Shown: one piece after another, positions 75 to 454 of the stretch
Numbering within the stretch: the first letter of the stretch is position 1
Layout: each line of letters starts with the position of its first letter
Virus genome (UHGV): UHGV-0301654
Reading direction: 5' to 3' (one strand)
Source of the DNA: a virus
Length of the DNA stretch: 10,290 nucleotides
The notes under the pieces: generated by a model
Database searches by the model: none
What the model saw: the letters and a program-made list of their open reading frames with translations, nothing else
Told to the model about the DNA's origin: nothing
Position numbers and translations under genes: made by a program

Positions 75-165
75 TATTCGATAATGGGTCCTGTTGGCCA
101 TTCAATATCCGGTGCAGTTGTTGTATTAACACGGTTCAGCAACACCCGATACTTCTTCCAGGCTT
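75..165 (-). pseudogene. 3' fragment of a lambda-type tail-fibre assembly (tfa) gene, fused to the invertase remnant
   Basis: Reverse strand reads ...[30 protein letters not shown], which parallels the C-terminus of the intact Tfa at 9613..10188 (...[27 protein letters not shown]). About 90% nucleotide identity by eye to 10098..10188 in inverted orientation. No N-terminal part or start codon. Confidence 0.6.
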
Positions 166-400
166 CCACCACCAGCACGACAAGATGCCGCATACAGTGA
201 CCCAGTCAGTCCAGTTTCCAGACAACCAGTGCGTCACCTTTTTGAAGGCGCTTTAAAGCACGTTTTAATCCAGGTCGGCCTGTCCTTATTCCGCTTAATT
301 TATCTTCAAATATTTGTTCACATCCTGCACAAACAAGAGCGTTTCGTTGCAGGTCTGTATTCTGGTCATTTGTTGATACCCTTACATAGCCAATCAGCAC
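166..400 (-). pseudogene. pin: serine DNA invertase (Pin/Gin/Hin/Cin family), truncated by a stop codon
   Basis: Reverse-strand ORF with GTG start at 400 preceded by GGGAGA. It encodes (M)LIGYVRVSTNDQNTDLQRNAL...GDALVVWKLD, the recalled N-terminus of Pin-type invertases including the catalytic-serine motif YVRVSTNDQ. A TGA at 206..208 sits where homologues have Arg (WKLD-R-LGRS). Invertase-like coding continues out of context ([12 protein letters not shown]) to about 166 and then switches to tfa sequence. The ORF track calls 206..424 from an upstream GTG. Confidence 0.8.
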
Positions 401-454
401 GCTGAATCTCCCGTCCAAAAGCACAAATCATGCCATGCAGGCCAGAAACCGCCA

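Follow-up and report, generated by a model that had tools for sequence, protein, structure and literature searches.

Orientation switching of a tail-fibre segment probably continues beside a doubly inactivated Gin/Pin-type invertase gene in cryptic lambdoid prophages of Escherichia coli

Introduction

The invertases of the well-known Gin/Pin/Cin/Hin tail-fibre switch family classically cross-complement one another. A different arrangement is found in Bacteroides, where the distant 'master' invertase Mpi serves invertible regions as a standing regulatory design. The Mpi family is named in PMC9881135. The enhancer of the Hin system is 65 bp long, carries a Fis site at each end and is located about 100 bp from hix (PMC3798978), while the Gin enhancer lies inside the invertase gene itself (PMC3798978, citing Kahmann et al. 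1985). Inversion in trans between cryptic prophages has been achieved experimentally: over-produced PinQ, encoded by prophage Qin, is reported to invert the P segment of e14. Deletion of pinE, in turn, locks the e14 segment (PMC12529663 for both findings).

Here we analysed a stretch of 10,290 nucleotides of the virus genome UHGV-0301654 (in the following, the window is this whole stretch), of which a preliminary description had been made from the letters alone. The locus is a decayed member of the Gin/Pin/Cin/Hin tail-fibre switch family. Judging from comparison of its sequence with other genomes, the stretch 74..424 is probably a doubly inactivated Gin/Pin invertase remnant in a cryptic lambdoid prophage, and the neighbouring segment would still be inverted occasionally by an invertase supplied from elsewhere.

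Results

The window starts right after dgcX, a diguanylate cyclase gene (10669-12000 in locus L001), described as a passenger of prophage remnants at the lambda attachment site in ETEC and O104:H4 strains (PMC4287979). The invertase remnant and the tail-fibre cassette come first (Table 1). What remains of the window is a Qin-like remnant with DUF1398, ynfO, Nu1, terminase, gpW, a portal'::'stf deletion join and a full tfa. The portal-stf join looks like a deletion by which a Qin-like prophage was stripped of its entire set of head and tail genes. The match of loci L001 and L013 to the window ends at position 7173; at that point their terminase gene is truncated and fused to Rz. The last 190 nt (10100-10290) are 98% identical to the 3' end of K-12 tfaQ/tfaR and the spacer to pinQ/pinR. 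Since the final 5 nt overlap the pinQ/pinR stop codon, the edge of the window is probably where a full-length PinQ/PinR-type gene begins, some 10 kb away from the invertase stub.

Table 1. Features of the window, with their positions and strands (. marks features without strand)
Feature	Position	Strand	Remarks
tfa 3' fragment, lambdoid, last 31 codons and TAG (76..74)	74..168	-	in frame with the invertase stub
Chi octamer GCTGGTGG, last 8 nt of invertase DNA	169..176	-	abuts the junction
pinE-type invertase codons 65-77, beyond the stop	169..209	-	includes the 196..208 substitution patch
In-frame TGA, codon 65	206..208	-	Arg in Gin, P88 invertase and PinE
Invertase stub ORF, 64 codons	206..400	-	GTG start 400..398, stop TGA 208..206; gin-type
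Putative recombinational enhancer	316..379	.	homology to Mu gin, geometry of the Hin enhancer
Candidate 15-bp Fis core GTGCAGGATGTGAAC	330..316		presumed; 49 bp from the other core
Candidate 15-bp Fis core GTATCAACAAATGAC	379..365		presumed; centre 95 bp from the gix centre
Left recombination site, gix-type	455..480	.	TTATCTAAAACC TC GGTTTACAGGAA
Invertible tail-fibre segment	469..3519	.	88-94% identical to G/C segments of P88, D108, Mu, P7, P1
Silent Sv'	481..1425	+	inside the segment
U'	1428..1961	+	inside the segment
U	1990..2517	-	inside the segment
Sv	2521..3507	-	inside the segment
Right recombination site, gix-type, inverted	3508..3533	.	TTCCTGTAAACC GA GGTATTCGATAA
Remnant of stf constant part, 152 nt, no start codon	3534..3685	-	remainder of stf deleted
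Portal N-terminal fragment	7785..8213	+	runs into stf
stf without the first 76 positions of Pfam phage_tail_N	8183..9613	+	
Full tfa	9613..10188	+	

On the minus strand, one continuous reading frame runs from 424 to 74 and is broken by a single stop. Its translation opens with VLIGYVRVSTNDQ, the N-terminus of Gin/Pin-type serine invertases, and includes the catalytic motif with the nucleophilic serine (Ser9 in YVRVSTxDQ); GTG is the native start codon in Mu gin and the P88 invertase gene as well. Alignment with Gin and PinE confirmed the proposal of the preliminary description that the pin frame ends at a TGA where homologues have Arg, leaving about 64 residues. This TGA at codon 65 was found in all gin-type alleles examined. 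A sequencing error, which had to be considered, is excluded, as the same sequence recurs exactly in about 270 complete E. coli genomes. The 64-codon ORF matched the Pfam Resolvase family with E = 3.5e-18 at profile positions 2-73 of 145. With read-through past the TGA, the match extended to Resolvase positions 2-94 of 145, and Caudo_TAP positions 104-130 of 131 were added. Neither the stub nor its read-through gave a Pfam match to HTH_7, the C-terminal helix-turn-helix, and after codon 77 the sequence is that of tfa. The catalytic domain is incomplete, as it lacks the long dimerisation helix as well as the Arg cluster that follows the WKLDR motif. These results also agree with the earlier statement that most of the catalytic domain and the helix-turn-helix are lost. 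In identical loci the 64-residue ORF carries the PGAP name 'recombinase family protein' (WP_001378636.1). By its predicted product, the stub is unable to make an invertase, since half of the catalytic domain is missing along with the dimerisation helix and the domain for DNA binding.

The other lesion is the join to tfa. An alignment of the window, pinE and tfa placed it in frame between positions 169 and 168. Thus, the fusion to a tfa 3' end that had been proposed before is real, but its position is not about 166 as then given. Likewise, the junction had been assigned to a shared ctgg..gaag stretch, and this did not hold up: at the join, pin TGGAGGAG and tfa TGCTGGAA display an imperfect 8-nt similarity with zero bases of true overlap. 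At the DNA level, the tfa fragment shares 94% identity with the corresponding gene of phages mEp332 and ev099. The fragment comprises the end of Caudo_TAP named above and no other part of that profile, and is thus far from a full-length tfa; PGAP labels it 'tail fiber assembly protein, incomplete' (pseudogene) in identical loci. Among the phage genomes of INPHARED, none spans the junction, as matches end at 171 or begin at 210. The fragment (92-171) and the 3' end of the full tfa (10100-10179) form an 80-nt inverted repeat, 92.5% identical and 10 kb apart, that could support larger rearrangements.

The invertase part of the stub is itself a mosaic, which is Mu-gin-type from 424 to about 212 and e14-pinE-type from about 209 to 169. 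Compared with Mu gin, the gin-type part has 8 differences in 195 nt, all of them after gene nt 110. Positions 195..169 are identical to K-12 pinE and to locus L007, while Mu gin and P88 differ throughout. Within the pinE-type part, at 208..196, we found 6 substitutions in 13 nt relative to the closest open-frame allele (L007), with identical flanks. Here L007 reads AGG CTG GGG CGT AGT and the window TGA CTG GGT CAC TGT, so that two changes make the TGA. The invertase DNA ends in a Chi octamer, the only one in the 10.3-kb window, and the same octamer occurs at the same codons of K-12 pinE. Its polarity at a break would shield the 5' side of pin from RecBCD. A second, independent pin::tfaE join (L008, 1378-1686) falls inside the same octamer. 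We considered Chi-stimulated RecBCD processing as the cause of the break and keep it as a remark only, because the join has no overlap. The L008 join was also rejected as support for a role of Chi, as it is explained by 7-nt microhomology and the contig has an N at the site.

The dead junction is widespread. Window positions 60..424 (365 nt) recur exactly in seven of the eight chromosomal loci that were fetched, and in the eighth, from strain PEC1003, the 80-nt stretch of junction and TGA is exact. Two 809-nt junction queries were covered to at least 80%, with best matches at 100% identity, in complete E. coli genomes: 133 for the window arrangement and 137 for the inverted arrangement, the latter query consisting of window 60..468 and the reverse complement of 3120..3519. 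The stub junction is thus carried by about 270 complete genomes, roughly one in twenty of the complete E. coli. Furthermore, 19 IMG/VR contigs carry the same dead junction, and in the assembly collection, 4358 indexed blocks contain the exact 64-residue product. GTDB species representatives gave one match only, a 2.5-kb contig (JAEWTL010000008.1, L057) of a 'Bacillota bacterium' MAG. Since it holds the exact E. coli stub, junction and tail, it most likely represents E. coli contamination of that bin.

A protein search with the read-through product, which is able to find in-frame fusions only, detected open-frame chimeras with an identical junction followed by VEAWKKY (P0001/L007, P0002, P0003 and P0008). 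At the DNA level the L007 junction, GCTGGTGG followed by TGGAAGCC, is the same as in the window, while its 5' part is pinE-type and lacks the stop. Other pin::tfa joins arose independently (P0040/L008 and P0030/L009). Because identical junctions with an open frame exist, the deletion and fusion came first and the TGA was a later hit in the gin-type lineage. The gene is dead, as the preliminary description had it, but the stop codon to which it ascribed the knock-out is not the primary lesion. The junction together with the TGA occupies several sites, namely the lambda att/dgcX, Rac and prfC sites, and the potB site (L007) has the same junction without the TGA. About 55 nt past the junction are common to all copies, which then diverge into at least four types of tfa tail that match the local prophage. 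This pattern argues for one origin and subsequent spread by homologous recombination in the tfa 3' region. We propose the following order of events. A pinE-type gene would have lost everything after codon 77 by an illegitimate join to the last 31 tfa codons, and homologous recombination in stf and within the conserved 3' part of tfa would then have carried the pin'::'tfa junction from one lambdoid prophage to another. Later, the 5' part would have been swapped for Mu-gin-type sequence, and finally the cluster of substitutions including the TGA would have accumulated.

Next to the stub, the elements on which inversion acts are in place. Two 26-bp gix sites in inverted orientation, with the matching central dinucleotides TC and GA, enclose two opposed sets of fibre C-terminal and assembly genes, as expected of a Gin-type segment, and the segment genes match Pfam Caudo_TAP, gp37_C and Gp34_trimer. 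The left gix lies in a 38-nt inverted repeat with 3500..3537 that bounds the inversion seen between strains. Two other parts of a working switch are lacking in the window. The neighbour in cis is the truncated stub and not a working invertase, and there is no constant 5' fibre part with a start codon. Homology to the full-length stf of strain C2 ends at 3685, where the oppositely oriented DUF1398-ynfO-Nu1-terminase block starts, and PGAP calls the stf remnant 'phage tail protein, incomplete, missing N-terminus'. At the same locus, C2 and PEC1003 have a full-length lambda-type stf preceded by lom and J. As the tail-fibre gene itself is truncated in the window, flipping is probably without phenotype there. 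Just outside the truncated fibre gene, we noted a GC-rich stem with a trailing T run (about 3735-3757, plus strand) and an 18-nt inverted repeat (3760-3777 / 3786-3803). Both of these hairpins look like terminators.

The surviving part of the gene is the one in which homology would place the enhancer. Gene nt 1-110 do not differ from those of Mu gin, in line with the earlier suggestion that the enhancer-bearing 5' part is retained. For the positions of the Fis cores in the gin/hin enhancer, the literature gave a general description only (65 bp, about 100 bp from hix), and the core coordinates in Table 1 are for that reason presumptive. We placed them by homology with the hin enhancer. While gene nt 1-110 have 0 differences, there are 5 in nt 111-189 (Fisher p = 0.012). 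We considered this conservation as a sign of selection on the enhancer and rejected it: Mu and P88, whose genes work, show the same pattern when compared with each other. Since the invariance is equally seen in functional genes, it does not by itself demonstrate selection on the stub.

We then compared the orientation of the segment across the carriers. Some of the genomes with the inverted arrangement are frozen, as the second gix was lost by deletion (L014, L015, L017). Strains C2, MB10, HeN100, X14-3, STEC309, 101EVA and others, by contrast, combine a full-length stf with an inverted segment and both gix sites. A full-length stf with the segment in window orientation, at coordinates that match the dgcX locus, was found in PEC1003, ETEC6, MSI001, PSS-13, cM2a, ES6 and others. 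The window-type stf deletion at 3685 usually goes with the window orientation, but in EC20-4B-2 the segment is inverted. Taken together, one and the same dead junction accompanies either orientation in three structural backgrounds and at a number of prophage sites, and among the IMG/VR contigs both occur within two different tfa-tail groups.

The clearest case is the pair PK8566 and EC20-4B-2. The two strains are identical at the window-equivalent positions 1..468 and 3520..7000, while the 3051-nt segment between them is reverse-complemented with 1 mismatch; the outer half of each site has remained attached to its flank. The 12.4 kb to the left of the segment contain 2 differing positions (1 mismatch, 1 gap). 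The pair thus displays a clean gix-to-gix inversion within about 21 kb of identical or nearly identical flanks. More generally, segments beside the dead junction are 99.7-100% identical in both orientations versus 88-94% to phages with working invertases, and for this reason repeated inversion after the death of the invertase is the simplest reading. The preliminary description had held that inversion could still occur with an invertase supplied in trans. The occurrence of one dead junction with either orientation, and the PK8566/EC20-4B-2 pair in particular, bears this out by indirect, comparative evidence.

Since the segment was flipped in related strains, some enzyme other than the stub must, as far as the genomes tell, do the flipping. 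We therefore surveyed invertase genes in 60 carrier chromosomes, using the dgcX coding sequence as a unique anchor; plasmids are separate records that were not matched to strains. In a local check, dgcX gave no cross-match to dgcT, cdgI or dgcJ. About three copies of the att arm that precedes dgcX occur in each genome, and a 2-kb anchor with this arm hit 23,825 places versus 5,356 without it. At least one other Gin/Pin-type 3' half was present on the chromosome of 41 of the 60 carriers, and 14 had a PinR/PinQ-type gene only, among which type fall PK8566 and EC20-4B-2. Neither type was detected on the chromosomes of the remaining 5 (74-2, ET474, PSJ-14, MB52 and PEC1003). For comparison, a Gin/Pin-type 3' half was present in 3441 of 5426 complete genomes. 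In L030, L038 and L049, the stub is followed 200 bp downstream by a full-length pinR-type gene, and in L045 a pinR-type 3' end lies at the same distance before the contig ends. PinQ and Gin are 36% identical. Given that deletion of pinE locks the e14 segment, native PinQ may be insufficient. The most likely agent is an enzyme of the Gin/Pin type, contributed by another prophage or by a phage infecting the cell, because cross-complementation among Gin, Cin, Pin and Hin is classical.

Discussion

Our preferred explanation starts from a stub at the outer end of an inversion cassette, which lies beside dgcX in a cryptic lambdoid prophage occupying the lambda attachment site of E. coli. The cis elements of the switch have survived, namely the two gix sites and the stub sequence that serves as Fis-dependent enhancer in Mu gin. 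A serine invertase from another prophage, a plasmid or an infecting phage would then flip the segment from time to time.

Differences in orientation could also arise without any invertase, by RecA-dependent recombination between the 38-nt inverted repeats, of which 25 nt are perfect. Such an origin is compatible with the fact that the crossover cannot be placed more finely than these 25 identical nt, and with the 5 of 60 carriers that lack a detectable chromosomal invertase. However, 25 nt is at the lower limit for RecA-mediated exchange. In addition, switching has affected at least three structural backgrounds and more than one prophage context, the sequence of the repeats is that of canonical gix sites beside a conserved putative enhancer, and most carriers have invertase genes, so that we regard RecA as an improbable cause. 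Inversion might alternatively have ceased when the gene died, with the junction recombining into prophages that were already oriented either way, or with segments imported from invertase-proficient phages. The junction does move, as the different tfa tails, chromosomal sites and several N-terminal alleles attest, and some of these alleles are identical to P88 at residues 37-42. Against this stands the identity of the linked segment, which is 99.7-100% both ways versus 88-94% to invertase-intact phages. Moreover, as the flanks of PK8566 and EC20-4B-2 are identical on both sides, import would need a donor identical save for orientation. We therefore doubt strongly that inversion stopped with the gene.

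A functional product is a further alternative, either the in-frame Pin'-'Tfa chimera or the 64-residue peptide, acting as a regulator or as a dominant-negative invertase subunit. That the junction is in frame, that annotation treats open-frame alleles as proteins containing both Pfam domains and that the 64-residue ORF is very common are all in keeping with this idea, and a function would explain the spread of the module. But every gin-type allele has the stop and one has a second nonsense codon, while replacements pile up at residues 37-57. An in-frame join has a prior of one in three, and our search was limited to in-frame cases. To poison an invertase, finally, the peptide would need the dimer helix that it lacks. 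We consider a functional product highly improbable. Occasional inversion by an enzyme from elsewhere, acting on the surviving gix sites, would account for the observations more readily than any of these.

The stub may have been kept for a reason, although we put this forward as a tentative and on the whole unlikely suggestion: it could be the cis enhancer of a portable cassette for host-range or surface variation in lambdoid phages. The unit would consist of the constant end of stf, a gix, Sv-U/U'-Sv', the other gix, the enhancer stub and about 55 nt of tfa, and recombination in stf and the conserved 3' end of tfa would transfer it from prophage to prophage. Invertases would come from elsewhere, possibly from adjacent PinR/PinQ-type genes of Rac- or Qin-type prophages. 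If this were true, selection would act on a switch devoid of its own invertase in about 5% of E. coli genomes, and the tail-fibre fragments might also serve the host, as reported for StfE2 of e14.

On its own, the locus amounts to a pseudogene within a decayed prophage, and its two pieces are already marked by automatic annotation. What the comparison of genomes adds is that a Fis/enhancer-dependent switch can apparently outlive its own invertase and keep changing orientation. This bears on how far other elements, resident or visiting, serve the switches of cryptic prophages. The question is topical following the report that PinQ flips the e14 segment and that phage T2 is blocked as a result. 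A natural test set for the invertases that act on gix is provided by the three groups of carriers, which have Gin/Pin-type genes, PinR/PinQ-type genes only, or neither.

Among known systems, the G segment and gin of Mu, with their counterparts in D108 and P88, resemble the locus in sequence and layout. The first 190 nt of the stub are 94-96% identical to gin including the GTG start, and the gix sequences, the Sv-U / U'-Sv' layout, the place of the invertase and its transcription away from the segment are the same. In contrast to these phages, the invertase here is cut at codon 77 and stopped at codon 65, and the cassette resides in a lambdoid prophage with a lambda-type stf constant part instead of a Mu-like or P2-like phage. 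With the P segment and pinE of e14 in K-12, the locus shares the pinE-type codons 65-77 including Chi, as well as the state of a cryptic prophage with decayed tail-fibre genes. However, e14 has kept a full-length, active PinE, and its segment and repeats are unlike the G-type cassette described here. The inversion of the e14 segment by PinQ (PMC12529663) offers a parallel for action in trans, as PinR/PinQ-type genes lie beside some copies of the stub and probably at the right edge of the window. The difference is that e14 still has its own invertase, and that on the gix sites of the present cassette PinQ is a candidate enzyme only.

The H segment and hin of Salmonella have the enhancer in the 5' part of the invertase gene, and the geometry of the putative enhancer in the window fits this placement. 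In Salmonella, however, hin lies inside the invertible segment, which controls a promoter and not tail-fibre coding ends. The regions served by Mpi, finally, likewise switch without a working invertase of their own, but here the orphan state results from gene decay.
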